A stretch of 64,000 bases of DNA from Vicinamibacterales bacterium (GTDB taxonomy: Bacteria > Acidobacteriota > Vicinamibacteria > Vicinamibacterales > UBA2999): the NCBI GenBank assembly GCA_964202965.1, contig CAXNKG010000003.1:23032-87031 (forward strand). The letters run 5' to 3'. Below the pieces are notes generated by a model that was not told the origin of the DNA, searched no databases, and was given only the letters and a program-made list of their open reading frames with translations. A program made the translations under genes and the position numbers. Of the stretch, positions 5,960-64,000 are shown one piece after another. Position 1 is the first letter of the stretch. Every line of letters starts with the position of its first letter.

Positions 5960-7154
5960 CTACTCATCCTCGAGTCCCGCCTCCATGTTGAATCGTACCG
6001 GGGTCGCAAGAACAGGGACAAGACGAGAATCCGACCACCAGAGGCGCGCAACGACCGAGTTCCAGGCCCGCTCTAATGCCGTTGCTGGCGTTTATCGGCC
6101 TGGCGGCGGGCATCGCCTTCTCCGGGACCTACTACTACCTAAGAACCGAGCAGCGCTTCCGGCTTGCGGCAGAACAGGAACTCCTCGCCATCGCCGATCT
6201 GAAGGTGGGTCAACTGGTGTCGTGGCGTGACGAACACATCATGGATGCGAGGGTCCTGGGCACTGTGTGGGAGAGGGGCGACGCGGCGCGCTTCGTTGCG
6301 CAGCCGAACGACGCAGCCGCGCGACGTGCACTGACGGAGGTGCTGGAGCAGGTCACGGCAGCATACGGCTATGAAGAGGCTCAGGTGTTGGATAGCAAGG
6401 GGGTCTCGCTCCTTACCGTGCGCGCCGTGGGCAGCCAAGCAGACTCCACGCTGGTCCAGACAGCCACCGATGCCCTGCGGGCCGGTCAGGTCACGATTGA
6501 GGACCTTTACCGAAGCGACTCCGACCAGCAGATCTATCTGCGGGTGATAGCTCCGTTCTTCAGTATGGCGGATGCCAGCCAACCGCTGGGCGTGATCGCT
6601 CTGCGCCTGAAGCCGACGGCCTTCCTCTATCCGTTCATTCAGTCCTGGCCGGTGCCCAGTGAGACCGGCGAGACGCTGCTCGTTCGACGAGATGGAGACA
6701 GCGTCCTGTACCTGAACGACCTGCGGTTCCAGGCGCAAGCGGCCCTCAACGTGCGGGGCTCACTCCGAGGGAACGACCTCCCGGCGGCCCGGGCGGTCAT
6801 GGGGCAGACGGGAATCATGGAGGGAATGGACTACCGCGGCGTGCGGGTGATGGCCGCCCTGCGCATGGTTCCGGATTCGTCCTGGTTTCTGGTGGCGAAG
6901 AAGGACCTGGCGGAGGTGACTGCACCGGGCAGGGCGCTGCTGTGGCCGGTGGTCTTACTGATGGGCGTTACGATCCTCGGTGCCGGCCTCGGCGTGAATC
7001 TGTCCTGGCAGCGACAGGCTCTCCACCACTACCGGCAGCAGGCGGGGGCAGACGAAAAGATGCGCGACAGCGAGCTGAAATTCCGCACCTTGTTCGACAC
7101 AACGACCGACGCCCACATGTTGCTTGCCGACGGTCTCTTCGTGGACTGCAACGC

Positions 7155-7312
7155 CACGACGGCCCACTGGGAGGGGTGCTCAGCGCCGTGCTCCCTGACC
7201 ATCCGGATCGCCCGCTCTCGGACCTCCGGGGAATATCGACTCTGTCGTGCCATGGGCTCCATCCTCTCAAGGAATGAGCCCTCCCACGATCCCGGTACGA
7301 TTCAGAGAGTCA
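7155..7312 (-). mobile_element. IS3-family insertion sequence remnant (left end plus first ~30 codons of orfA)
   Basis: Minus-strand ORF 7029..7262 begins [34 protein letters not shown], typical of the IS3-family OrfA HTH N-terminus. It then runs into antisense kinase sequence. The outer end reads TGACTCTCTGAATCG... on the minus strand (TGA terminus typical of IS3 inverted repeats) and ends at 7312. The inner boundary is approximate. Confidence 0.55.
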
Positions 7313-7484
7313 CGTGGGCGAGTCCCCGGCGATCGTGCCCTGCGGATCGTACGTCATGCTTGCCATACGCGATTCCGGCGTCGGCATGGACGAGGCCACG
7401 CGCGCGCGCGCGTTCGAGCCGTTCTACACGACCAAGCCGCAGGGCAAGGGCACGGGGCTGGGGTTGTCTACCGTGTACGGCATC

Positions 7485-7526
7485 GTCAAGCAGAGCTCAG
7501 GCTTCGTCAAGCAGAGCTCAGGCTTC
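7485..7526 (+). repeat. perfect 21-bp tandem duplication inside the kinase ATP-binding domain
   Basis: GTCAAGCAGAGCTCAGGCTTC occurs twice back to back (7485..7505 and 7506..7526). This gives the in-frame [14 protein letters not shown]. Confidence 0.9.
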
Positions 7527-8082
7527 GCCTGGATCGACAGCACGGTCGGCCGCGGGACGACTGTCACGGTCTACCTGCCACGTGCGACCGGGGAGGCGCT
7601 GTCCCCCGGCGCGCCCAAAAAGACTGCAGCGCCCGGAGGGACCGCCGTAGCGCCACGCCCCGGCACCGGCACCATTCTCGTCGTTGAAGACAATCCCTCG
7701 CTTCGCAAGGTCGCCACTCGTATGCTCGAGTCCGGCGGCTACACCGTGCTTGGGGCCGGCACGGGGCCGGAGGCACTGAGCCTTCTGGCCCGCCAGGCAG
7801 GCCCGGTGTCCCTGGTGCTGACCGATGTGGTGATGCCCGGCATGAACGGGCGGGAACTCGCGGAGCAGATTGCGGAGTCCCACCCGGAGATCAGGGTGGT
7901 CTTCATGTCTGGGTACACCGAGGACGCCGTGTTGCTGCGCGGAGTGTCGGAGGCACACATGGCCTTCATCGGCAAGCCGTTCTCCAAGCCGCAGTTACTC
8001 GAGAAGGTTCACCAGGTTCTCAATTCGTAGACTGGCGCTGGCGTCCACCCCGCTTGAGTCGCACTCGGCTTTAGGCGTCGTC

Positions 8083-9345
8083 CTACTGCTTCTTGCCCTG
8101 ATCGTGCGGCACGACGACGCCCACGTTCGCCGTCGCCCTGTTGCCGGTGTCATCCGTGCACGTGACGGTCACCGTATACACCCGCCCGCTGCCATTGCCA
8201 CTGCGGGCCGCCCGCAGCCGAACGGACAGCGGACCGGTCACGGCGAGGTCGCCGGAGTCGCCCTCGTTGCTGGTCACTGACGTGACTTCGCAGGTCGGAT
8301 TGGCAGTGAAATCGTCAGTGGCGGTAACGGTGATTGAGACGTCCTTCATCGTGTCGTCTGGCGGCCACAGCGCATCGGGCGACGCCGACGTCGCCGTGAT
8401 CACGGGCGGCGTTGTGTCCACGACGCAGCCCTCAAAATCGCACGCCTGGTAGGCGGCGGTCTCGCCCGCCAGAGTGGAGATCATGTTGGGAGCATTGCCG
8501 CCGCTACGCCAGGCGATGAAGTTCGTGACCTTGTACGGCCCGTCGAGACCGCTCGAGCCGATGGCCGTACCGTCGAAGCGGAGGGGAAGGGTCCTCGCCC
8601 CAGCGGAAAAGAACCCACTGCCAGTCGCCATGCCGAGGTTCGTTCCGTCCGGAGCCTCGATCGCCGCGCTCCAGCGGTAGGTACCTGCTGCCGGATCTTC
8701 CAGGTTGACCAGGAAGCTGACGTCCAGATGCTCATACTTGCCATTGGAGTTCGTATCGACGCCGTGTTCGTCGATCCCGATCAGTGACATGCCGTGGCTG
8801 GTGGTCACCTCCTCCAGGATCAGGGCCGCCCAGTCGATGGCCGTGCACCAGACAAATTCTGCGTTGGCCGTATCGATCTCGATCGTCACGTCATTGCTCA
8901 CCGCTCCTGAGCCGCCGGTCGGAAACACGACCTTCGCGATCGGCACGTAGAACGAATTCAGGGTCCAGGCGTTGTTGATGCCCAGAAGATGTCCCAGGTT
9001 GAGCCCATTGAACGAGACGATGTCGACCTCCGGCTGGTAGCCAGGCACGTTCGCCTTGTCATCGACATCGAACGCCGGCATCAACAGTTTCGCGGTGGCC
9101 GGCAGGACGCTCGGGAGGCTATCGACCGGGATCTGAATGCGGAGCGGACTGCCATTGCGGAAGGTGCAGCCGGTATCGAGCCCGCCGCCGGAATCAATCA
9201 CGAAGACGTTGTTCGAGGGATTGGGCGGATCGATTGGCGCACTGCCGCTATGCGCTGCCCAGACGACGGCTGGCAGCGCCATCGTGAGAGCCGCGATACC
9301 GGCGAGTATCGACCTCGAAAGGGTCCTGCTTGCGAGTATTCGCAT
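8083..9345 (-). CDS. secreted protein with C-terminal Ig-like module
   Basis: ATG 9345 (MRILASRTLSRSILAGIAALTMALPAVVWA) follows AAGGAGG. The C-terminus carries the recurring LWPPDDTM...SNEGDSGD...LRAARSGNGSGRVYTVTVTCTD...VVVPHDQG module seen in many secreted bacterial proteins. Confidence 0.7.
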   Translation of the reverse strand: MRILASRTLSRSILAGIAALTMALPAVVWAAHSGSAPIDPPNPSNNVFVIDSGGGLDTGCTFRNGSPLRIQIPVDSLPSVLPATAKLLMPAFDVDDKANVPGYQPEVDIVSFNGLNLGHLLGINNAWTLNSFYVPIAKVVFPTGGSGAVSNDVTIEIDTANAEFVWCTAIDWAALILEEVTTSHGMSLIGIDEHGVDTNSNGKYEHLDVSFLVNLEDPAAGTYRWSAAIEAPDGTNLGMATGSGFFSAGARTLPLRFDGTAIGSSGLDGPYKVTNFIAWRSGGNAPNMISTLAGETAAYQACDFEGCVVDTTPPVITATSASPDALWPPDDTMKDVSITVTATDDFTANPTCEVTSVTSNEGDSGDLAVTGPLSVRLRAARSGNGSGRVYTVTVTCTDDTGNRATANVGVVVPHDQGKKQ

Positions 9346-54246: not shown

Positions 54247-55016
54247 TGCGTTATCTCGTCATCAGCGACATTCACGCGAACCTGGAAGCGCTCGACGCGA
54301 CGCTGGCCGCCGCTGACGGCGCCTATGACCAGGTCCTCATGCTGGGCGATCTGGTTGGCTACGGCGCGGACCCGAATGCGGTGATCGACCGTGTCCGCGA
54401 GCTGCCCCTGGCAGCCGTCATCCGCGGCAACCATGACAAGGTGGCGGCCGGGATCGAGGGCACCGACGGCTTCAACGCCGTGGCCCGCGCGGCTGTGGCC
54501 TGGACGGCCACGGCGCTCACGCCGGCCAACCTCGCATGGCTGGCTTCGTTGCCGGCCGGCCCCGTCGTCATCGACGACAACATTGAAATCTGCCACGGCA
54601 CGCCTTACGACGAAGACGTCTACGTGTTTGACGACATGGACGCCTTTCAGGCGATCCGCGCCGCGGCGCGCCCCCTCTGCCTGTACGGCCACACGCACGT
54701 GCCGGCGGTCTTCCGGCTGATCGACGGATCCGCACCAGGGGACGACCATCGGGATCCGTCACTCGACTTGCTGGGGCCGACAGGCGGTCCCCGGTTCAAG
54801 GTCCAGATGGACGCTGACGCCAGGTTTCTGGTGAATTGCGGAGCGGTCGGTCAACCCCGCGACGGGGACCCGCGCGCGTCCTACGGCCTTGTGGACACCG
54901 ACGCGCGGCTCGTGACGATCGCGCGCGTGGAGTACAACATCCCTGTCGCGCAGAAGAAGATCATCAACGCGGGCCTGCCAGACGTCCTTGCGCGCCGGCT
55001 CGCTGTCGGCCGATAA
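54231..55016 (+). CDS. metallophosphoesterase family protein
   Basis: Only the tail of track ORF 53520..55016 is real. VISDIHAN, LGDLVGYG, GNHD, GHTH. Start is ATG 54231 or GTG 54246. Confidence 0.85.
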   Translation: MDWVLVRYLVISDIHANLEALDATLAAADGAYDQVLMLGDLVGYGADPNAVIDRVRELPLAAVIRGNHDKVAAGIEGTDGFNAVARAAVAWTATALTPANLAWLASLPAGPVVIDDNIEICHGTPYDEDVYVFDDMDAFQAIRAAARPLCLYGHTHVPAVFRLIDGSAPGDDHRDPSLDLLGPTGGPRFKVQMDADARFLVNCGAVGQPRDGDPRASYGLVDTDARLVTIARVEYNIPVAQKKIINAGLPDVLARRLAVGR

Positions 55017-55038
55017 AACGGGGTCCCCGACCCCGTTT
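55016..55038. terminator. bidirectional intrinsic terminator between convergent operons
   Basis: AAACGGGGTC-CCC-GACCCCGTTT, flanked by A/T runs. It overlaps the stop of the + gene (55014..55016) and the stop of the last ccm-operon ORF (55037..55039). Confidence 0.7.
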
Positions 55039-55183
55039 ATTTGGCGGAGGGTCTTGAGGCGCCCTGGCGGCGCGCCTGCGCGGCATAGGCATCCGCCGCG
55101 GCACGCGATCCGAGGATCCACCCAATCACGACCCCGAGAATCAGAATGCCCGGGATGTAAATGAAGTGGGCCGCGTTCGGCAT
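55037..55183 (-). CDS. 48-aa single-TM peptide, last ORF of the ccm operon
   Basis: My translation: MPNAAHFIYIPGILILGVVIGWILGSRAAADAYAAQARRQGASRPSAK. The ATG overlaps the upstream stop (TGATG). Below the track cutoff. Confidence 0.4.
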   Translation of the reverse strand: MPNAAHFIYIPGILILGVVIGWILGSRAAADAYAAQARRQGASRPSAK

Positions 55184-55467
55184 CAGGGGCGTCCGCCGCG
55201 CTTCAGATCCGACTCGAGACGCTCCAGTTCGCGCTGCACCGTGGCCATACGGCGGGCCACCGAGACGACGTAGGCGAAGAGCGCCAGCGCCACGAACGAG
55301 TACGCGGCAACCAGGAGCGGCGCGGCCGGGAGCTGATCCTGCGCAGGCAATTCGTCGATCGGGACGAATTCCTCCTGCTGCTGCGGCGCCTGTGCATAGA
55401 GCGCGGCGGAGCCGACGGCTAGTGGAGATATCACGGCCAGCAGAGCGATCAGTCCGAGTGTTCGCAT
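55183..55467 (-). CDS. ccmD: alternative-type CcmD-family membrane protein
   Basis: ATG 55467 (MRTLGLIALLAVISPLAVGSAALYAQ). TM plus basic/coiled tail LLVAAYSFVALALFAYVVSVARRMATVQRELERLE, typical of the alternative CcmD family. It lies directly after ccmC. Confidence 0.55.
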   Translation of the reverse strand: MRTLGLIALLAVISPLAVGSAALYAQAPQQQEEFVPIDELPAQDQLPAAPLLVAAYSFVALALFAYVVSVARRMATVQRELERLESDLKRGGRP

Positions 55468-55468
55468 T

Positions 55469-56125
55469 CTAGTTATCCGCGGAAAGATACAGGGCATCGA
55501 GCCGTGTCCGCTGCTCCTCGAGGCGCACGCGCATCCGCAGCAGCAGCACGAACATCAGCAGGAACGTCACCGCACTGAACCAGAGCGGCAGTCCGAAGGA
55601 GGTCGGCAGCGTCGGCACGACGCTGGTCGTCGGGTGAATCGTCCGCCAGTAGTTCACCGAAATGTAGATGAACGGCACGTTCGCCATCCCGAACATCGCG
55701 AGGCCGGCCCCGAGCTTATCCGACCCTGGCCCGCCGTACTTTCGCAGCAGCATGTAGGCAACCGCGACCATCCATCCCATCAGGCTGGACGTCAGCCGGA
55801 CGTCCCATTGCCACCAGACGCCCCACGCCTTGCGGGCCCACAGAGGACCGGTGATCAGCGTGATGGCTCCGAACAGCACGACCAGCTCCGCCGCAGCCCA
55901 CGCCGTTCGGTCATGGCGCGGGTTGCCCCCGAAGAGATACCGGACGCTCGCAATGCCGCAGACGATGGCCGACAGGAGGAAGACCCAGGCGGACGGAAGA
56001 TGCACGTAGAAGATCTTCTGCACGAGCCCCATCGTGGACTCGTACGGCGCCTGGGCGATGAGCACCGGCGCAACCGCGAACATCAGGCCGCAGACGACCG
56101 CGGCAGGAGTGAACCATGTAGGCAT
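55469..56125 (-). CDS. ccmC: haem exporter / haem lyase subunit CcmC
   Basis: ATG 56125 (MPTWFTPAAVV). WWD-type motif WGVWWQWDVRL and conserved His contexts. The extra N-terminus in track ORF 55469..56185 is translated repeat DNA. Confidence 0.92.
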   Translation of the reverse strand: MPTWFTPAAVVCGLMFAVAPVLIAQAPYESTMGLVQKIFYVHLPSAWVFLLSAIVCGIASVRYLFGGNPRHDRTAWAAAELVVLFGAITLITGPLWARKAWGVWWQWDVRLTSSLMGWMVAVAYMLLRKYGGPGSDKLGAGLAMFGMANVPFIYISVNYWRTIHPTTSVVPTLPTSFGLPLWFSAVTFLLMFVLLLRMRVRLEEQRTRLDALYLSADN

Positions 56126-56126
56126 A

Positions 56127-56204
56127 GGCTTTGGGCTTTGGGCTCTGGGCTTTAGGCTTTGGGCCGGCCAAGGGCCGAGAGCCAAAAGCCTAGCGCCTAG
56201 AGCC
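56127..56204. repeat. inverted pair of heptanucleotide arrays (GGCTTTG units) around a GGCCGGCC centre
   Basis: GGCTTTG GGCTTTG GGCTCTG GGCTTTA GGCTTTG GGCCGGC | CAAGGGC CGAGAGC CAAAAGC CTAGCGC CTAGAGC. It fills the ccmB-ccmC gap up to 1 nt from the ccmC ATG. Confidence 0.85.
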
Positions 56205-56207
56205 CTT

Positions 56208-56885
56208 TCAGTCTGTCATCAACGGCTCGAACGTCCAGAGCGCCAGTGTCACGAACACCACGTCGAAGCATGCCAGTAGCGCCAGCCAGAAGCCGATGAT
56301 GCTGGCGTCCACCTCTGGCTGCAGCAGCGCGGCGGTCGCGCGAACCCCGGCAATGATGACCGGAACGGTGATCGGATACAACAGCACCGGCAGCAGCACG
56401 TCGCGGCTGCGGGCGCGCACGAGCATGGCGGCGAACAGCGTGCCGACGGCCGCGAAGCCAATCGTCCCGAACACCAGGACGATCGCCAGCCAGCCCGGCC
56501 TCTCAAGCAGCGGCGCCTGGAACAGCAGCGCAACGAGCGGCACCAGGATCATCTCTGCGCCGATGAGCAGGACCACGACGCCGAGCAGTTTGCCGACATA
56601 AATCGCAGGCCGGGACGCCGGCGCCAGCAGAAGCGCGCGCAGCGTCTCGGACTGGCGCTCGCGCTCGAACGTCCGGCCCAGCGCCAGCGTCCCCGCAAAC
56701 GCGATCGCGATCCAGAGGATGCCCGCGGCGCCACCCTCCGGCGCGCGTCCCTCCTGGACCAGCGCGAACGCGAAGATCAGGACGCAGGAGACGGCGAAGA
56801 AGAGCATGGTGTACGCGATCTCCAGGCTCCGGACCTCCACCGTGAAGTCCTTGCGCAGCACCAGCCACACGATGCGCCCGAACAC
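56208..56885 (-). CDS. ccmB: haem exporter permease CcmB
   Basis: 225 aa, six TM helices, CcmB-like over the full length. Confidence 0.9.
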   Translation of the reverse strand: MFGRIVWLVLRKDFTVEVRSLEIAYTMLFFAVSCVLIFAFALVQEGRAPEGGAAGILWIAIAFAGTLALGRTFERERQSETLRALLLAPASRPAIYVGKLLGVVVLLIGAEMILVPLVALLFQAPLLERPGWLAIVLVFGTIGFAAVGTLFAAMLVRARSRDVLLPVLLYPITVPVIIAGVRATAALLQPEVDASIIGFWLALLACFDVVFVTLALWTFEPLMTD

Positions 56886-57586
56886 TACGTCGCCATCACT
56901 TTCCGGTACAGCGTCCTGAGCTCTTCAGGCCGGTCCGCCGAGCCCACCATCCGCCCATCCCGCAAAAAGATCGCGTGGTCGAGCAGGTCGCCCGCCAGAT
57001 CGAGGTCGTGCGTGGCGAGCACGATGATCGCGCCGGAATCGCGGAGCGCACGGAGTCGCGCCAGCAGCGCCGACCCGGACGCATCGTCGAGACCCGTGAA
57101 CGGCTCGTCGAGCAGCAGCAGCGTCGGCCGGTGAATCAGCGCGCGCTCCAGCGCCAGCCGCTGGCGCATCCCGCGCGAGAACGTCGACACCGGATCATCA
57201 GCGCGCTCCCCCAGGCCGGCGTGCGCCAGCGCCTCGGTGGCGGCGGCACGCGCATCCGGCACGCTGTAGAGCCCCGCGAAGAACTCCAGGTTCTCCCGCG
57301 CCGTGAGCTCGGGATAGAGGAAGAGGTCGTGGCCGAGCACGCCGATCGACCCACGAAGGGCCGCGCCATCCTGCCGGGGGTCGATCGTGCCGTAGCTGAT
57401 CAGCCCGCTCGTCGGACGAAGCAGGGTCGCCAGCATCGCAAGCATCGTCGACTTCCCTGCTCCGTTGGGACCAAGCAGGCCCAGGATGGTGCGACGGGGG
57501 ACGGTGAATGTGACATGAGAAACGGCCCTGCGGCGGCCGAAGTGGCGGGAGACGTCGTCAACCTGGAGCTCGTCGAAGGCGCTCAC
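56885..57586 (-). CDS. ccmA: haem exporter ATP-binding protein CcmA
   Basis: GTG 57586 overlaps the upstream stop (GTGA). Walker A GPNGAGKST, signature FSRGMRQRL, Walker B LLLLDEP. Confidence 0.9.
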   Translation of the reverse strand: MSAFDELQVDDVSRHFGRRRAVSHVTFTVPRRTILGLLGPNGAGKSTMLAMLATLLRPTSGLISYGTIDPRQDGAALRGSIGVLGHDLFLYPELTARENLEFFAGLYSVPDARAAATEALAHAGLGERADDPVSTFSRGMRQRLALERALIHRPTLLLLDEPFTGLDDASGSALLARLRALRDSGAIIVLATHDLDLAGDLLDHAIFLRDGRMVGSADRPEELRTLYRKVMAT

Positions 57587-58812
57587 GCGGCGACGTCCCT
57601 GCCGCCTCCCCTCGGGCCTGGATCGACATGATCCAGCTCGCCATAAATCTGTTCGAGTTCGGCAACGATGCGCTGGTGCCGCGCGTCGTCGGATCCGGAA
57701 GGCGCCCGTCGCCTCCGTTTGTATTCGAGCCCCGCAAGCTCCGCGAGGAGCTTCTCTCGTCGCGCGGCCAGGCGGCCTGCGGACCCATCCACGCGCGTGC
57801 GCCCGCTGAACCCGAGCCACAGGCCTCCCGCAATGACGAGGCCTGCGATCCCGAGCGCGGTGAACACGGGCGTGCGGCTATGCACCGGCAGGTCGGACAG
57901 CTCCATCGTCAGCGTCGAGCCAGCGGGCATCGCGTTGCCGCTGGCCAGGAGAAACGGCGTGCCCGTTTCTGGCGCCGTCACATCACCCACCGTCGAAAAT
58001 TGCGGCGACGATATCGAGACGGCTCCGACCTTCTCGATGGCGACGCTCAACTGCTCCAGCGCGACAGGCCAGGCCTGTTCAACGGTGATGTCCGCACTGG
58101 TGTACGGAAGCTGAAAGCCGACCTGGACGGACGTGAGCCCTGCGGCGAACGGTCCGACGACGGTCACGACGTCCCCGCTGATCGTCGCGCTGGGCGAAGA
58201 TCCTTCGAGCGTCGACGCGCCCGCCGCGCCCGTCGGGAGCTGCAGGATCAATGGACCACCGATGTCAACGCGCGCACGCGCGTTATTGACGATGTCGAAA
58301 ATGTAGAAGACGCGCAGCGTGTCGTCCCGGAACTCCATGAGGATGCGCGAATTCGGCCCAAGGACGACCGAGCCTTTGACGGGCGGCGCCGCGGCAGCCG
58401 CCGCGTCCTCCTGCGATTTTCGCGCGGCGGCGTCTTTCATCCCCGCCACGAGAATCACGCGGAGACCACCGGTCGCAGGCACCGTGAAGGAGTCGGAGGT
58501 CAGCGCCTCGCCGCCGATCGTGGCGTCGGCGCGCACTTCCGCGCCGGCTGTCAGGCCGGGAAACTCGGCACGGCCCTCCGCATCGGTCGTGGCTGTGCGC
58601 GGCTGTCCGTTGACCGTGAGGCGGACGCTCTGGCCGGTGATGTTGTTGCCGATGGCTTCACGGACGACGCGGACGGTCACCGTGCCTGGAGCGAGATCGC
58701 CCGCCGGGATCGCCCGGCCGTGAATCAACGACGGATCCGGCATGGCAATCTGGGCGAACAGCACCCCAAATCCCAGAAGCCACATCCCACAACCCAAAAC
58801 GACCCGCGTCAC
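57583..58812 (-). CDS. uncharacterised exported protein with CarboxypepD_reg-like N-domain, C-terminal TM anchor and cytoplasmic coiled-coil tail
   Basis: 409 aa. Signal-like N-terminus, GTVTVRVV...GQSVRLTVNGQPRTATTDAEGRAEFPGL beta-sandwich, TM ALGIAGLVIAGGLWLGF, then RREKLLAELAGLEYKRR...IVAELEQIYGELD. GTGA overlaps on both sides. Confidence 0.6.
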   Translation of the reverse strand: MTRVVLGCGMWLLGFGVLFAQIAMPDPSLIHGRAIPAGDLAPGTVTVRVVREAIGNNITGQSVRLTVNGQPRTATTDAEGRAEFPGLTAGAEVRADATIGGEALTSDSFTVPATGGLRVILVAGMKDAAARKSQEDAAAAAAPPVKGSVVLGPNSRILMEFRDDTLRVFYIFDIVNNARARVDIGGPLILQLPTGAAGASTLEGSSPSATISGDVVTVVGPFAAGLTSVQVGFQLPYTSADITVEQAWPVALEQLSVAIEKVGAVSISSPQFSTVGDVTAPETGTPFLLASGNAMPAGSTLTMELSDLPVHSRTPVFTALGIAGLVIAGGLWLGFSGRTRVDGSAGRLAARREKLLAELAGLEYKRRRRAPSGSDDARHQRIVAELEQIYGELDHVDPGPRGGGRDVAA

Positions 58813-59348
58813 GCTTTCACCAGTCCGCCGCCACAGTTCTTACAGAACCGCGCGTCGACTTCGTTCGCGGTCCCGCAGCTCGCGCAGGTCGGAATCGCGG
58901 GCGCGGTGACCCGCCTGGCGAGTTCATCCTCGATCTGCTGCCGATAGCTCGCGCCGGCGTCGAGTTGCCGCAGGAGGCCGGCAGCGCGGAGGCGGAGCCG
59001 CGCGCCCATCTCCGCACAATCCTTCTCCGAGACCTTGCCCATGGCGCGGTCGAATTCCAGATCCTTGATGGCCCGCAGCACGAGCGTCTTCTCGCGCTCG
59101 AGCGCCGCACGGGTACGGCCGCCGAGCATCTGCGGTGCCATGGGATCCTCCGCGCTGCCGAACGGCGCGAACGTGCGCCAGGCCGCGTAACCCACGAGCG
59201 CCGCGCCAAAAATAATCAGGCTGAGGAGGATGACGCCGGCAGGCGTCTCGCCGCGGGACATGAACACGACGACCGTCGCACCGATCAGGCCGGCGAGGGT
59301 GAAGAGCTGCCAGGGTTGAAACGCGTCAGTCGAGGTTTCGGAGCTCAT
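58809..59348 (-). CDS. uncharacterised two-TM protein with coiled coil and C-terminal zinc ribbon
   Basis: ATG 59348 (MSSETSTDAFQPWQLF...), overlapping the end of ccmF-H by 23 nt. Two TM helices, LEREKTLVLRAIKDLEFDRAMGKVSEKD, C-terminal CASCGTANEVDARFCKNCG. The rest of track ORF 58809..59738 is out-of-frame overlap. Confidence 0.6.
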   Translation of the reverse strand: MSSETSTDAFQPWQLFTLAGLIGATVVVFMSRGETPAGVILLSLIIFGAALVGYAAWRTFAPFGSAEDPMAPQMLGGRTRAALEREKTLVLRAIKDLEFDRAMGKVSEKDCAEMGARLRLRAAGLLRQLDAGASYRQQIEDELARRVTAPAIPTCASCGTANEVDARFCKNCGGGLVKA

Positions 59349-61788
59349 CGTCGAGACGGGCGCTCGTGGTCGCGTCCATTCCGGCGTCGCCGGCGGCCGC
59401 CGGAACCGCGCGCGTCGACCAGCGGCGCGCAGTGACGAAGATGCCGGCGAGGGCGGCAAGCGCGACGAGATACGGCACAATCCAGGCGAGGCGATTGAAC
59501 CCGCGATCAATCGGCGCGGCCAGGATGGCCTGGCTCCCGAACTCCGCGGCGAACGCGTCCCGAACCTCGTCATAGCCCTTGCCTTCCGCGAGGAAGGCTT
59601 CGAGCCGCGCCGCCTGCTGATCGTAGTGCCCGCAATTCGGGCGCATCGGGCAGCTGCCCATCGGCGACTGGCAGCCGCAGGTGCACATGATGTCACCCTC
59701 GAGCTGCCGATGCAGCTCGCTGCGCTGGTTCGGGGCAACGGTTTCGGTGGTTTGCGCGATCACCGACGCCGGCCACAGGAGCAGCGAGAACAGCAGCAGC
59801 GATGACGTGACGGCATTCGACGGCACCTTCGCCAGCGCGAATCCGAGCGCCGCTTCCGGCAGGAGCGCGATGCCGGTGCCGAGCGCAAGAATGCCGAACC
59901 CGGCCCACACCCAGTTCACCAGGGGGTTGACGACAATCTCCATGCTGGCGCTCTGCTCCTGCAGGTCGAACGCGGGCAGGACGAGGTAGAGGTCTTCAGA
60001 GAACGTGCGGCGGATCGCCACCTCGGTGGTGGGCTGATCCTCATGCTTCCGGAAATACCACTTCGCCGGATACATCTTCCCGATCTCTTCCCCGTCGCGG
60101 AACACGGTGGTGTGCGCCGTGATCATCTGCTTCTGGCCGTCGTCGGTGACGCGGACGGTGTCGAGGCGGACGGTGAAGTCGCCGACCTGGGCCTGCTGCC
60201 CGGGTTTGAGCAGTAACTGCTCGTCCTGCTTGAATCCCTCACCCGCGAAGCCCAGGAACATCAGAACGATGCCGATATGGACGATGTAGCCGCCGTACCG
60301 GCGCTTGTTGCGTGCCACGAGGCCGATGAGCGCCGTGAAGACGTCCGTGCCAGTGGCGTCCTGGCGAACCCGGGCGCCGCGCCAGAACTCCTGGCCGATC
60401 GTTCCCACGACGAAGCCGCAGAGTGCAAAGCAGATCCCAGAGGTCCAGACGCGCACGCCGAGCGCGACGAGCGCCCCGCCGACGACGAGCGCGGTCGCCA
60501 CGGGAATGAGGAACTGCTGCCGCAGATTCGTCACCGTCGTCTTCCGCCACGCGAGCAGCGGGCCCACGCCCGTGAGCACGAGCAGGATGAGGCCGACCGG
60601 GAGCATCCACTTGTTGAAGAACGGCGGACCCACGGTCAGCCGTTCGCCCGTGACTGCCTCACTGATCGTCGGAAAGAGCGTCCCGAACGCGATGAAAAAC
60701 GCCGAGAAGAGCAGGATCCAGTTATTGGCGAGAAAGGCGGCTTCGCGCGACATCCACGAATCGAGCTCGTTCCGCGCCCGCAGCAGCGGCAGCCGGTAGA
60801 TGACGAACCCGAAACTGACGGTCAGGATGGTCACCATGAAGATGATGAACATCCGGGCAAGCTCGGGGTCTTCGCCAAACGCATGGACCGACTGCACGAT
60901 TCCCGACCGCGTCAGGAACGTGCCGAAGATCGTCAGGAAGAACGTGAGGATGACGAGCGTGACGTTCCAGACGCGCAGCATGCCGCGCTGCTCCTGCACG
61001 CGCACCGAATGCAGGAACGCGGTCGCAGTGAACCACGGCAGCAATCCCGCGTTCTCGACCGGGTCCCAGCCCCAGTAGCCGCCCCATCCGAGCTCTTCGT
61101 ACGCCCAGATCATCCCGAGCCCGAGTCCGACCGACAGGAACAGCCACGAGATCATCGTCCAGCGGCGGACGGCGCGCAGCCACGAGTCGTCCAGATACCC
61201 GGTGATGAGCGCCGCCATGCCGAACGCGAACGGAATCGTCAGGCCGACGAACCCCGTGTACATGGTGGGCGGGTGAATCACCATGTAGAAGTTCTGCAGC
61301 AGCGGGCTGAGGCCGGCGCCGTCGGTGGGGCTCTCGGTCAGGTACGTCGAGAACGGGTTGTTGTGGACGATCATCAGGAACAGGAAGAACATCTGAACCG
61401 TCGAGATGACCGCCACCACATACGGGATCAATTCCCTGTGGCGTTCCCTGTTCACGAAGACCGCGGCGCTGCCGAAGCAGGACAGCAGGAACACCCAGAA
61501 CATGATCGAGCCGTCGAGCCCGCCCCAGTACGACGTGATCTTGAAGAAGAGCGGCTGGACCGAATCCGAATAGCGCTGGACGTACTTGATCGAATAGTCG
61601 CCGACGACGAAGGCGTAGACGATGATGGCTGACGCGGCCGTCATGATGGCCGCAACGAAATAGAACGCCCCGATACCGCTTTCAATCAGTCGTGTGGAGC
61701 GCCGGCGTGCGCCCGCGACCGATGCCGCGAAGGCATACGCGCACACCACGAACGCGCTGAGAAGAAGGTAGTAGCCGAGGGATGCCAT
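59326..61788 (-). CDS. ccmF: cytochrome c haem lyase CcmF fused in frame to a CcmH-like domain
   Basis: 820 aa. CcmF core with WGGYWGWDPVENA. The last ~165 aa have a signal-like segment SSLLLFSLLLWPASVIAQ, IMCTCGCQSPMGSCPMRPNCG, LAEGKGYDEVRDAFAAEFGSQAILAAP and a TM helix, which is the CcmH/NrfF-like layout. Confidence 0.9.
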   Translation of the reverse strand: MASLGYYLLLSAFVVCAYAFAASVAGARRRSTRLIESGIGAFYFVAAIMTAASAIIVYAFVVGDYSIKYVQRYSDSVQPLFFKITSYWGGLDGSIMFWVFLLSCFGSAAVFVNRERHRELIPYVVAVISTVQMFFLFLMIVHNNPFSTYLTESPTDGAGLSPLLQNFYMVIHPPTMYTGFVGLTIPFAFGMAALITGYLDDSWLRAVRRWTMISWLFLSVGLGLGMIWAYEELGWGGYWGWDPVENAGLLPWFTATAFLHSVRVQEQRGMLRVWNVTLVILTFFLTIFGTFLTRSGIVQSVHAFGEDPELARMFIIFMVTILTVSFGFVIYRLPLLRARNELDSWMSREAAFLANNWILLFSAFFIAFGTLFPTISEAVTGERLTVGPPFFNKWMLPVGLILLVLTGVGPLLAWRKTTVTNLRQQFLIPVATALVVGGALVALGVRVWTSGICFALCGFVVGTIGQEFWRGARVRQDATGTDVFTALIGLVARNKRRYGGYIVHIGIVLMFLGFAGEGFKQDEQLLLKPGQQAQVGDFTVRLDTVRVTDDGQKQMITAHTTVFRDGEEIGKMYPAKWYFRKHEDQPTTEVAIRRTFSEDLYLVLPAFDLQEQSASMEIVVNPLVNWVWAGFGILALGTGIALLPEAALGFALAKVPSNAVTSSLLLFSLLLWPASVIAQTTETVAPNQRSELHRQLEGDIMCTCGCQSPMGSCPMRPNCGHYDQQAARLEAFLAEGKGYDEVRDAFAAEFGSQAILAAPIDRGFNRLAWIVPYLVALAALAGIFVTARRWSTRAVPAAAGDAGMDATTSARLDDELRNLD

Positions 61789-61800
61789 GTCAGCCCTCGG

Positions 61801-62316
61801 CTAGTACGACGTACTAGGGGTTCCTGAAGTTCCTAGGGTTCCTGAGGTTCCTAGGGTTCCTGAGGTTCCTAGGGTTCCTGAGGTTCCTAGGGTTCCTGGG
61901 GTTCCTGGAGTGCCTGAAGTTCCTGGGGTGCCGCCGACCTGGGGCTCGTATTTCGACGGGCACTTCGCGGTCATGCTGGTCGCGTGGAAGCCGTCCTCCG
62001 CGAGCGTGCCCTGAAGCACCACCTCAGACTCGTTCTTGAACGTGTCGGGAACGACGCCCGTATACGTGGCGCGTACCACGTGCCCCTTGCTGTGCATCTC
62101 GAAGCTGTAGTCGAGGGAGTCGCGCTTGCGGCGGATGTCCCTGGCGTAGCCGTGAATCTGGAGCGGCTTGCCGTACCAGGGTGCCGGCTGGACCATCACT
62201 TCCTCGACGTGCTTGTAGTACTGCGCGCTCTCGCCGAGCGTGGAATAGAGCAGCCCCCCGAAGGCGAGGGTCAGCACCACGCCGGTGATCCCGATTTTCG
62301 CGGCTTTGTGACTCAT
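61801..62316 (-). CDS. ccmE: haem chaperone CcmE, CxxxY variant with Gly-Thr-X repeat tail
   Basis: ATG 62316 ([23 protein letters not shown]). OB-fold core. MTAKCPSKY aligns where canonical CcmE has the HxxxY haem-binding motif. The tail is [43 protein letters not shown]. Confidence 0.88.
61818..61934. repeat. 13 tandem 9-bp units (GGTTCCTNR) inside the ccmE 3' end
   Basis: The 18-bp unit GGTTCCTGAGGTTCCTAG occurs about 4 times, flanked by degenerate 9-mers. It shares the GGTTCC core with the array at 35044..35129. Confidence 0.9.
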
Positions 62317-62345: not shown

Positions 62346-62909
62346 TCAGGATACCAATATTCCCGCGTTCTTGCACAGGTCGTAGACAAGGCCAACCGGC
62401 AGCCCGACCACATTCGTATAGGGGCCGGAAATCGTCGTCACAAAGCGCGAGGCCAGCCCCTGGATCGCATACGCGCCCGCCTTGTCCGAGGGCTCGCCAG
62501 ACGCCACGTACCAGTCGATGTCCCCGTCCGTGAGCGGCGCGAAGTGGACGGTGGTGGATGCGATCTCCGTCTGGAGCGCCCCAAACGCGAGGCAGACCCC
62601 CGTCAACACCACGTGCGCTCGCCCCGACAGCATCCGCAGCATCCGCTTCGCGTCCGCTGCGTCAGCCGGCTTTCCGAGAATGTCGTCCCCGCAGACGACC
62701 ACCGTATCGGCCCCGAGCACCGGCCGCCCCGCTGCCCTGTCAATCACCGCGCGTGCCTTGGCTTCGGCGAGCCGCGCGACGTAGGCGTCCGCAGCTTCGC
62801 CGTCGCGCCGCGTCTCGTCGACGTCCGCCGTCAGCACGTCGAACGCGATGCCCGCCGCGCGGAGCAGCTCGGCTCGTCTGGGTGACGCCGACGCCAGGAC
62901 TAGCCGCAC
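62346..62909 (-). CDS. maf: Maf-family nucleoside triphosphate pyrophosphatase
   Basis: [29 protein letters not shown]. Confidence 0.9.
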
Positions 62910-62919
62910 CGTCGCACCA

Positions 62920-64000
62920 CTACCGTGCCGTGTCTGGCGTCCAGTTTTGGATGAGCGTGATCGGTGCGGTCGCCTCGTCCAGGCCCGTGTTGATCAGGAT
63001 CCGGCCGTCCCGGGCGATGTCGTAATTCGTTCCCACACCCAGGTCCGTGCCGACCCCGACGATCCGGGTCCGAAAGAGCGCCACCGGCCGGCCGGGTTCC
63101 AGCGTCGCGCCGCGGACGGCGATCGGCGCCGCCATCAGGGTCCCATCCGGCGCGAGGTACAGGATCTCCCTGCCCCCGGGCCCCCACCGGGGAGTGATCC
63201 CGCCCGTCGTCGACACCTGCCACTGCCCGCCGCCGCGTCCTTCGGCCGCGCCTGGAGCGGCGGGTCCCGAAAAGGGCCGCACATGAATCTCAAACCGTCC
63301 CGATTCGTTCGACTGATACGCCACCCAGCGCCCATCCGTGGAAAACTGGGCCCGCCGTTCATCGAACGGCGTCTTCAGCCACACCACCGGCGTGCGATCG
63401 CCGGCCAGGGGGACGACCCAGAGGTCCCACGATGTTTGCGGATCGAGGCTGTGATAGAGGAGGAACCGGCCGTCGGACGACCAATCACTCGCAGACTTGT
63501 CCTGCGGCGATGCCACCAGCAGGTCGTCGCTCCCGCCGCCGCTCGCGAGCTTCTGATAGAGATCGCGGCGGCCCGTCCGATTCGAGTCGAAGACGATCCG
63601 GCTCCCATCCGGCGACCAGAGGGGAAAGAGATCGAGACTGGGGTCGAAGGTGACGCGGGTCGTCCGGTCCGCGTCCAGGAGCCAGATGTCGATGTTACCC
63701 TGCACCCTGCGGCGAACCACCACCCGGCGGCCGTCGGGGGACAAACGCGGATTCAGGAGACCGTTCTCATCCGGCGCGCCCACTGTGCCCAGTACCTGGC
63801 CCGCGCGGTCGAACCAGGTCAGTTGACGCCGGGTGCTCCCGCCCGACCGGTACGCCACCAAGCCGGTCGCCGAAACCGACACGGCTCTGGCAAGAGAATT
63901 CCCGTCGATCGCGATCTGGTCGGCCACGGTGACCGGATCGCCGGTCAGCGCCCGCCGCGTCAGGTCCAGGCGCTGGGCCAGCAAGGTGCCGCCGCGGACA
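62920..64000 (-). CDS. TolB-like beta-propeller C-terminal region of a large protein (5' end beyond the right edge; probably a Ser/Thr kinase fusion)
   Basis: Repeated PxxSPDGxxxxF blades ([40 protein letters not shown]). C-terminal PITLIQNW as in the remnant at 48428..48805. The frame stays open to position 64000. Confidence 0.8.

Follow-up and report, generated by a model that had tools for sequence, protein, structure and literature searches.

The stretch of DNA analysed here, hereafter the window, comprises 64,000 nucleotides (nt) of a Vicinamibacterales contig and carries on its minus strand, between positions 55037 and 62316, nine closely packed open reading frames (ORFs), seven of which are assigned by Pfam and NCBIfam. 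Together they form a cytochrome c maturation (Ccm) operon of System I, in which the haem lyase CcmF is fused to a CcmH-like domain and two membrane proteins of 179 and 409 amino acids (aa), here called x and y, stand between this fusion and ccmA. A first-pass annotation of the same DNA had recognised a System I operon with a CxxxY-type CcmE and a non-canonical set of genes; searches with hidden Markov models (HMMs) and synteny agree with it, and its ORFs and family assignments match the ORF list and the Pfam and NCBIfam scans. In the order of transcription, the locus contains:

61801-62316, minus strand: ccmE, haem chaperone of the CPSKY type (PF03100, 4.6e-20)
59326-61788, minus strand: ccmF::ccmH-like fusion, 820 aa (CcmF_C 3.9e-54, Cytochrom_C_asm 7.7e-35, C-terminal PF03918)
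59839-61788, minus strand: ccmF core of the fusion (aa 1-650), haem lyase (CcmF_C, Cytochrom_C_asm, TIGR00353 4.6e-124)
59326-59838, minus strand: fused CcmH-like module (CcmF aa 651-820; PF03918)
58809-59348, minus strand: x, 179 aa, two hydrophobic helices and a C-terminal four-Cys zinc ribbon
57583-58812, minus strand: y, 409 aa, weak CarboxypepD_reg match below cut-off (7.6e-5)
56885-57586, minus strand: ccmA, ATPase of the ATP-binding cassette (ABC) type (ABC_tran 6e-32; position conserved in relatives)
56208-56885, minus strand: ccmB, ABC permease (PF03379, 8e-30)
56140-56205, minus strand: hairpin between ccmB and ccmC (folding energy and shuffles)
55469-56125, minus strand: ccmC (PF01578 2.7e-23, TIGR01191 2.1e-30)
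55183-55467, minus strand: CcmD_alt, 94 aa (TIGR04391)
55037-55183, minus strand: P48, a 48-aa peptide with a single transmembrane (TM) helix, conserved ORF and last gene of the operon
55016-55038, minus strand: terminator-like GC hairpin followed by TTTTAT (folding energy -20.6 kcal/mol, z = -3.0)

The genes are tightly joined. As read from the sequence, GTGA overlaps link x to y (58809-58812) and y to ccmA (57583-57586), TAGTG links ccmA to ccmB with a 1-nt overlap at 56885, TGATG links ccmD to P48 at 55183, and the coding regions of ccmF and x overlap by 23 nt, all of these junctions being exactly those given in the first-pass annotation. Spacers of 12 nt and 1 nt separate ccmE from ccmF and the ccmC stop from the CcmD_alt start, respectively. 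Translational coupling through stop/start overlaps extends across x and y. The terminator that had been placed at the end of the operon is also there, as the hairpin at 55016-55038; a simple terminator scan did not call it, because its run comprises only four T.

The operon is strictly conserved in Vicinamibacterales. A motif scan over one genome per species found an x relative encoded in 493 genomes, of which the best 80 loci were analysed; with two further contigs they make up a synteny set of 82 loci from about 80 Vicinamibacterales species genomes, which we searched by tblastn with all eleven window proteins. The order Maf-CcmE-CcmF-CcmHdomain-x-y-CcmA-CcmB-CcmC-CcmDalt-P48 is kept in all 82 as far as the contigs extend (57 are complete, the remainder are cut by contig ends), even where the identity of y falls to 34%, and hence the fusion and both inserted ORFs are genuine. 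An identical order is found on a 3.7-Mb contig. In 72 of 81 loci a single open frame runs through the CcmF core and the CcmH-like domain; the other nine look like indel-ridden assemblies. Independent gene callers report the fused protein as 819-820 aa, and window proteins of 820, 179 and 400 aa are annotated with exactly the same sequence on up to three independent contigs. That GC-rich DNA gives rise to many spurious long ORFs could speak for a fusion and inserted ORFs produced by assembly, frameshift or ORF over-calling. Given identical protein sequences on three independent contigs, the in-frame fusions, the conservation of x and y at the protein level in hundreds of genomes and the confident AlphaFold2 model of y, we regard the chance of such an artefact as negligible and have set this explanation aside. 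The CcmH-like domain is thus truly fused, as had been proposed, and the two doubts raised along with that proposal, that the inserted ORFs might not be syntenic with ccm genes in any relative and that the fusion might be an assembly or frameshift product, are dispelled by the 82 loci.

The CcmF core has the features of a haem lyase, namely the WWD motif (WGGYWGWDPVEN, aa 235-246) and four conserved histidines (His172, His260, His302 and His504), which we take to correspond to H173, H261, H303 and H491 of the E. coli protein. The module joined to its C-terminus consists of a linker TM helix, a periplasmic domain, a second TM helix and a tail in the cytoplasm whose last residues are RLDDELRNLD, and the segment aa 667-812 scores 36.8 bits against PF03918, above the Pfam gathering threshold (cut-off 25). 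The domain shares with canonical CcmH (PF03918; structures 2KW0 and 2HL7) the core G(K)xxDEI..FV..YG...L..P and the TM anchor behind it. Unlike canonical CcmH, which is free-standing and carries LRCxxC, the window domain is part of CcmF, lacks the LRCxxC redox motif together with its CxxC spacing and has CGC instead: the motif CTCGC (aa 702-706, nt 59671-59685; context IMCTCGCQ) combines CxC with CxxxC spacing. Over 80 relatives the motif reads (I/L)xCxCG(x0-3)C with two more Cys downstream, and the spacing is one residue in 36 of them (window included), two residues (CxxC) in 33 and four residues in 11. All five Cys and the cytoplasmic RLDDELRNLD are invariant in a 12-sequence alignment. A single-sequence phmmer search of the domain against the PDB gave no match, and CcmH was reached by the family profile alone: the 12-sequence profile has E. 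coli CcmH 2KW0 (1.8e-3) and P. aeruginosa CcmH 2HL7 (0.031) as its top two matches, the family C-G-x-C being aligned on the canonical C-P-K-C.

CcmE comprises an N-terminal TM anchor and an oligonucleotide/oligosaccharide-binding (OB) fold domain and, as the first-pass annotation had stated, is of the CxxxY variant, with CPSKY at aa 119-123 in a KCPSKY context that is invariant in 72 of 72 relatives. Its best PDB match is the Cys-type CcmE of D. vulgaris (2KCT, 1.2e-5), every NCBIfam CcmE equivalog model stays below its cut-off, and alternative starts lie at 62376 (GTG) and 62280. Behind the invariant KCPSKY(E/D), the CcmE tails of the relatives are short, highly variable and rich in G, T, S, A and P; in the window the tail is expanded by an 18-nt tandem repeat of 6.2 copies (61818-61929, minus strand; Tandem Repeats Finder score 175, 91% matches) that encodes GT(L/P)GTS units.

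The export module has the expected features as well. CcmA scores 119 bits with the ccmA model TIGR01189 (1.7e-34), just under the cut-off of 131.6, and CcmC has its WWD motif (WGVWWQWD, aa 101-108) and two periplasmic histidines, His42 and His164. CcmD_alt, annotated as 94 aa on the source contig, follows ccmC and reaches 31.5 bits with TIGR04391 (cut-off 24); its N-terminal hydrophobic segment precedes the conserved stretch EFVPID..LP.QDQLPAAPLL, after which come a TM helix and the cytoplasmic tail VQRELERLE. The 48-aa TM peptide noticed at the end of the operon proved to be a conserved ORF, present in 69 loci with 56-95% identity and thereby among the best-conserved products of the operon. 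The gene of P48 always closes the operon and is also annotated on the source contig. The peptide has no match in Pfam or NCBIfam; its N-terminal histidine (AHFIYIP in the window, xH(F/V)(I/L/V)(Y/F)IP in the family), predicted to be periplasmic, is kept in 68 of 69 sequences.

No CcmG and no CcmI of the tetratricopeptide repeat (TPR) type had been noticed in the cluster or elsewhere in the window, and this absence holds. Queries for TlpA, redoxin, thioredoxin, CcdA and TPR-CcmI found nothing by tblastn in the window or in the 82 related loci, no plausible window ORF contains a WCxxC motif, and neither CcmG, CcdA nor TPR-CcmI is encoded in the 7.8 kb of contig past the window end, so that canonical ccmG or ccmI genes do not lie just outside it. 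At the level of the locus, that is in the window, the 82 loci and the 7.8 kb beyond, the CcmG and CcdA/DsbD components of System I are thus missing. One ORF at 6076-7650, considered as a hidden thioredoxin on account of its GWGCLPC motif, has no thioredoxin or redoxin Pfam match and was discarded.

System I* is the Ccm variant whose CcmE contains Cys (Allen et al. 2006; Goddard et al. 2010; review by Stevens et al. 2011, PMC3601427). According to that review, CPSKY is found in the majority of the variant CcmE proteins, and carriers of the variant include delta-proteobacteria, Chloroflexi and Firmicutes. On account of its CPSKY motif the operon is placed in System I*, and judged by its motifs and families the locus is a System I operon of this cysteine-CcmE variant. 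The absence of CcmH counted among the original criteria in 2006 but was given up later, CcmH being present in about a third of the bacteria with System I* (PMC3601427); the PF03918 domain of the window is therefore compatible with membership. The combination of a CxxxY CcmE with CcmH, treated as unusual in the first-pass annotation, is indeed present but is already documented in the same review and hence not new. The window further agrees with System I* in that its order opens with ccmE-ccmF, followed by ccmABC(D), in that the operon encodes no CcmG and in that 2KCT is the best solved relative of its CcmE. It differs by the fusion of the CcmH-like domain to CcmF, by the five Cys of this domain with CGC for CxxC, by x and y between ccmF::H and ccmA, and by P48 after ccmD. 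Neither the five-Cys CcmF::CcmH fusion nor the conserved x-y pair nor P48 was found in the literature searched, and none of the three has a Pfam or NCBIfam model. They thus appear to be new with respect to System I*.

Protein x is composed of two TM helices, a cytoplasmic helical hairpin (ALEREK..L.LR.IK.LEFDRAMGK) and a zinc ribbon (CxxC-x10-CxxC) with zinc-ribbon Pfam matches (DUF7577, 4.6e-7); the hairpin is also seen in the predicted model of a fusion homologue. The four Cys of x are those of the cytoplasmic ribbon, a part that is missing in some natural x::y fusions and in the Bacillaceae counterpart of x described below.

Protein y is bitopic: behind a signal peptide come two periplasmic beta-sandwich domains, one TM helix and a helical hairpin in the cytoplasm, and the chain ends in VAA. 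Its AlphaFold2 model, with a predicted local distance difference test score (pLDDT) of 86.8, contains the signal helix, both beta-sandwiches, the TM helix and the hairpin. The best solved Foldseek matches of y are Ost1/ribophorin I (E = 2.6e-8), and the model of a second y-type protein, a 42%-identical fusion homologue, has the same top matches (E = 4.1e-8). Ost1/ribophorin I is a non-catalytic subunit of the eukaryotic oligosaccharyltransferase, an accessory to a polytopic enzyme that modifies an unfolded, Sec-translocated polypeptide. Like it, y has, in its predicted model, a pair of beta-sandwiches outside the cytoplasm, a single TM helix and a helical domain on the cytosolic side. The two nevertheless share no sequence similarity and belong to different domains of life and different pathways, and Pfam Ribophorin_I matches neither y nor 21 members of its family. 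No TPR match was found in x or y with Pfam, and the periplasmic part of the y model is all-beta. Mature y is free of Cys, the only one lying in the signal peptide, and the family alignment contains neither a conserved Cys nor a conserved His; going by the model and the alignment, y is not an enzyme.

The y family is large. It has more than 1,000 relatives in a 90% collection, all of them labelled hypothetical and the named ones from Acidobacteria or Vicinamibacterales; an exhaustive phmmer search yields 1,276 clusters at 50% identity, of which 832 have E <= 1e-10. Named representatives at 31-35% identity are still Vicinamibacterales, and a search for a wider taxonomic range through distant representatives led to short contigs or Vicinamibacterales names only. 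In NCBI and JGI records, x and y proteins are labelled hypothetical or carboxypeptidase-like regulatory domain-containing. As a separate observation, y ends in AA in 64 of 75 relatives (VAA 33, LAA 11, AAA 10, IAA 7) after GGG(K/R/E)(D/G), in the window at 57583-57600, an ending that can be likened to an ssrA-type degradation tag on a cytoplasmic tail. One 643-aa homologue (positions 347-2278 of its locus) has three tandem CarboxypepD_reg-like beta-sandwiches instead of one, and the gene upstream of it ends in a zinc ribbon.

Both proteins have counterparts outside the order. In a tblastn search of plasmids with CcmF, p1 of Cytobacillus firmus (NZ_CP107028) was the best match, with the order CcmE(KCPSKY)-CcmF-CcmH-x'(116 aa)-y'(310 aa)-CcmA-CcmB-CcmC-TlpA; the same order occurs in Metabacillus (NZ_CP088246), in Virgibacillus (V. 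oceani) and on one metagenome contig. Window and Bacillaceae operons share the E-F-H-x-y-A-B-C order, and x/x' and y/y' are homologous at the profile level. For x and x' the hhalign probability is 95.8% with E = 7.9e-9 (2.6e-5 in another comparison), and for y and the 310-aa y' the profile comparison gives E = 4.6e-5 over 234 columns, a relationship to which BLASTP of y against the Cytobacillus protein is blind. The Bacillaceae CcmH belongs to the same subfamily as the window CcmH-like domain (tblastn up to 7e-16). It is free-standing, however, with two Cys only (Cx8C). Furthermore, x' spans the membrane with one TM helix and lacks the zinc ribbon, y' possesses just one beta domain, and the Bacillaceae operons contain a redoxin gene after ccmC and a 37-aa CcmD-like peptide but no P48. 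Bacilli classically use System II (ResBC/CcdA/ResA). Some Bacillaceae nonetheless carry this complete System I* operon, partly on large plasmids beside qox and cytochrome oxidase assembly genes.

The pair is also linked by gene fusion. Eight of the best 150 y relatives are natural x::y fusions of 580-665 aa with the order TM helix, cytoplasmic hairpin, TM helix, periplasmic domain. Since such fusions exist, and since x and y are co-inherited and co-translated, the two proteins are functionally linked; their counterparts in Bacillaceae show that they are old. In addition, x' matches the tail hairpin of y (hhalign 70%, E = 3.9e-5), and by this profile comparison the tail hairpin of y is related to the hairpin of x.

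What the pair resembles is CcmI/CycH (TIGR03142 plus TPR). CcmI consists of two TM helices with a cytoplasmic region between them, which resembles a leucine zipper in R. capsulatus, and of a TPR domain that follows in the periplasm; it is a partner of CcmFH (PMC3884852). The Bacillaceae x' matches TIGR03142, the CcmI N-domain, at 1.6e-4 (21.9 bits, cut-off 29.3) and a profile of 113 Rhodobacterales CcmI N-termini with an hhalign probability of 81.7% (E = 1.1e-5); two x homologues match TIGR03142 in the same register but below cut-off, at 0.05 and 0.47 (13.9 and 10.8 bits). By way of x', x thus appears to be a remote homologue of the CcmI N-terminal module. Both x and x' share the combination of TM helix and cytoplasmic helix with CcmI, the pair adjoins ccmF/H, and the natural x::y fusions repeat the CcmI succession of TM helix, cytoplasmic loop, TM helix and periplasmic domain (PMC3884852). 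Unlike CcmI, x and y lack TPR repeats, and what lies in the periplasm is a double beta-sandwich that belongs to a protein of its own. Furthermore, x has an added cytoplasmic zinc ribbon and scores under the family cut-off, and the hairpin is present a second time in y, behind the TM helix of that protein. A TPR protein on a Pseudonocardia plasmid (positions 9443-10231 of its locus) occupies the CcmI position of a ccm cluster and has a cytoplasmic LQDILELEAQVAGGEIDEERARRMRRHY before its single TM helix; this actinobacterial protein shares the x-type motif (LQDILELEAQVAGGEID) ahead of that helix. The helical motif is common to x, y, proteobacterial CcmI and the actinobacterial TPR protein and may mark CcmI-type subunits in general.

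Synteny, fusion and remote homology lead us to infer that x and y together act as a split CcmI surrogate without TPR repeats and are subunits of the CcmF::CcmH lyase module, a reading to which we assign a probability of roughly 0.6. By homology and conservation, CcmA, CcmB, CcmC, CcmD_alt and probably P48 constitute a complete set that exports and loads haem, placing it on Cys119 of CcmE. CcmF, with its complete WWD motif and four histidines, is the haem lyase, its partner CcmH being joined to its C-terminus. In the mechanism that we propose, protein x would contribute a CcmI-N-like membrane anchor with a cytoplasmic helical hairpin, while y would hold or present, with its predicted periplasmic double beta-sandwich, the unfolded apocytochrome beside CcmF/H. 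In the cytoplasm, the hairpins of x and y and the CcmH tail may bundle and thereby tether the complex. The five-Cys CcmH variant (CxC-G-x0-3-C...C...C) would handle the thiols of the apocytochrome CxxCH, and a reductant pathway of CcmG/CcdA, if used, would be encoded elsewhere in the genome.

The proposal that x and y serve the lyase is favoured by synteny in 82 of 82 loci, by translational coupling through x and y, by the x::y fusions, by the same order in a second phylum, by the similarity of x' to the CcmI N-domain and by the non-enzymatic build of y. Several observations weigh against it. Against NCBIfam, TIGR03142 included, window x gives nothing at E < 0.1; an HMM of the 113 Rhodobacterales CcmI N-termini, run over all 855 window ORFs, has no significant match and does not rank x at the top; and Vicinamibacterales x compared with CcmI-N reaches an hhalign probability of only about 11%. 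With direct scores this weak, the link to CcmI is transitive and passes through the Bacillaceae protein; for the y family, hhalign against a CcmI N-terminus returned nothing. The periplasmic TPR domain characteristic of CcmI is found in neither x nor y, and the hairpin of x comes after both TM helices and not between them as in CcmI, unless x is fused to y. On the side of y, the Foldseek TM-scores with Ost1 are low (0.2-0.3), and the match is therefore taken as an architectural analogy. Gene order fits a role with the ABC exporter equally well, y being directly upstream of ccmA. Finally, since Desulfovibrio System I* is reported to work without CcmH and CcmG and CcmI is dispensable there (PMC3601427), accessory proteins may be non-essential.

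The position of y leads to the alternative that x and y assist the haem-export half (CcmABCD-E), regulating for instance the CcmA ATPase or the release of holo-CcmE through hairpins and zinc ribbon, with y docking CcmE. The y stop overlaps the ccmA start in GTGA, the pair is directly upstream of ccmA in both phyla, the VQRELERLE tail of CcmD_alt resembles the hairpin motif, and R. capsulatus CcmI is reported to bind apo-CcmE (PMC3884852). On the other hand, x also overlaps ccmF::ccmH, by 23 nt, and gene order therefore does not discriminate between the two halves; the detectable relatives of x are CcmI N-domains, that is, of a CcmFH partner (PMC3884852), and canonical CcmABCD needs no such subunits. 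We consider an assignment to the export half unlikely. Somewhat less probable still is that the pair is a regulatory or quality-control module instead of a stoichiometric subunit, in which the y beta-sandwiches would sense apocytochrome or haem load and the zinc ribbon and the ssrA-like (V/L)AA would mediate signalling or degradation. Zinc ribbons combined with TM helices are common in signalling and anti-sigma proteins, which together with the AA ending of 64 of 75 y homologues after GGG(K/R/E)(D/G) and the dispensability of CcmI in the Desulfovibrio system (PMC3601427) lends this view some appeal. Yet the neighbourhood of the operon contains no conserved gene for a DNA-binding domain, a sigma factor or a protease, the zinc ribbon is dispensable in Bacillaceae, and the strict translational coupling amid structural genes is of the stoichiometric type.

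That x and y might instead replace the missing thiol-redox components CcmG and CcdA/DsbD is suggested by the four Cys of x and by the lack of a thioredoxin-like protein or CcdA in the window, the 82 loci and the 7.8 kb beyond. This replacement is largely excluded, because mature y has no Cys and Bacillaceae operons have x'/y' along with a separate TlpA/redoxin gene. Nor is any Cys conserved in the y family, and the Cys of x form a cytoplasmic zinc ribbon that x' and some fusions do without; we thus hold a thiol role to be very improbable and have dropped it. The first-pass annotation had offered thiol or chaperone components as a guess for the two proteins. With x as a putative remote homologue of the CcmI N-module the chaperone half of this guess fares better, while the thiol half fails on the Cys-free mature y and the separate Bacillaceae redoxin.

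Building on the split CcmI surrogate, one may go further and propose that x-y is a previously unrecognised two-protein apocytochrome-handling module of System I*, present in Vicinamibacterales and Bacillaceae and replacing TPR-CcmI by a CcmI-N-like anchor in membrane and cytoplasm together with a double beta-sandwich subunit resembling ribophorin I, that it assembles with CcmF::CcmH via a cytoplasmic helical bundle, that the five-Cys CcmH, with CxC in this genome, performs the thiol chemistry without an operon-encoded CcmG and that P48 is a new haem-loading subunit. In this full form the proposal is tentative, and we would expect it to fail in some part sooner than to hold throughout. It touches on the open questions of System I, namely the way in which the CcmF/H lyase receives the unfolded apocytochrome and the set of accessory subunits that System I cannot do without. 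System I* has already shown that some organisms can dispense with CcmH, CcmG and the histidine of CcmE; the present operon adds a natural, order-wide design in which CcmH is covalently tied to CcmF and the canonical CxxC can shrink to CxC. If x and y are a split CcmI surrogate, the TPR chaperone would moreover be replaced by another fold split over two proteins, making the pair a concrete candidate for another kind of subunit that handles apocytochrome. Since Vicinamibacterales abound in soil and the y family, with its more than 1,200 clusters at 50% identity, is hypothetical throughout, assigning the pair to cytochrome c maturation would improve much annotation. For genetic tests, the homologous operon carried by Bacillaceae plasmids provides a tractable system.

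Some further features of the locus deserve mention. Between ccmB and ccmC, the hairpin array of the first-pass annotation turned out to be a hairpin structure indeed, yet a single long imperfect one and no array: the segment 56140-56205, composed of 7-nt repeats of GGCTTTG and its complement, folds with -46 kcal/mol (z = -3.67), and none of 200 shuffles folds as well. The ccmB-ccmC junction (window 56126-56207) is a variable hot spot that measures 0-260 nt in the relatives. About half of the relatives' spacers contain strong hairpins built from tandemly repeated short units, most of them 7 nt long, and the complements of these; between genomes the units are unrelated in sequence (GGGCTTT, CTGAGGC, GTTCxxx, CCCAATC and others). 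These hairpins may be an intercistronic processing or stability element or an insertion resembling repetitive extragenic palindromic (REP) sequences.

Upstream of the operon, a maf gene (window 62346-62909) directly precedes ccmE in all complete related loci. In this genome, maf is in turn preceded by a gene for a 909-aa Ser/Thr kinase with PD40/Tricorn beta-propeller repeats (6176-8905 of the source contig piece), the C-terminal part of which is the last ORF of the window (62920-63984, running past the window end). Lastly, several records of metagenome-assembled genomes (MAGs) with the Vicinamibacterales-type operon are labelled Bifidobacteriaceae, Acidimicrobiia, Gemmatimonadales, Betaproteobacteria or Sulfopaludibacter, implausible names that suggest binning or labelling errors.

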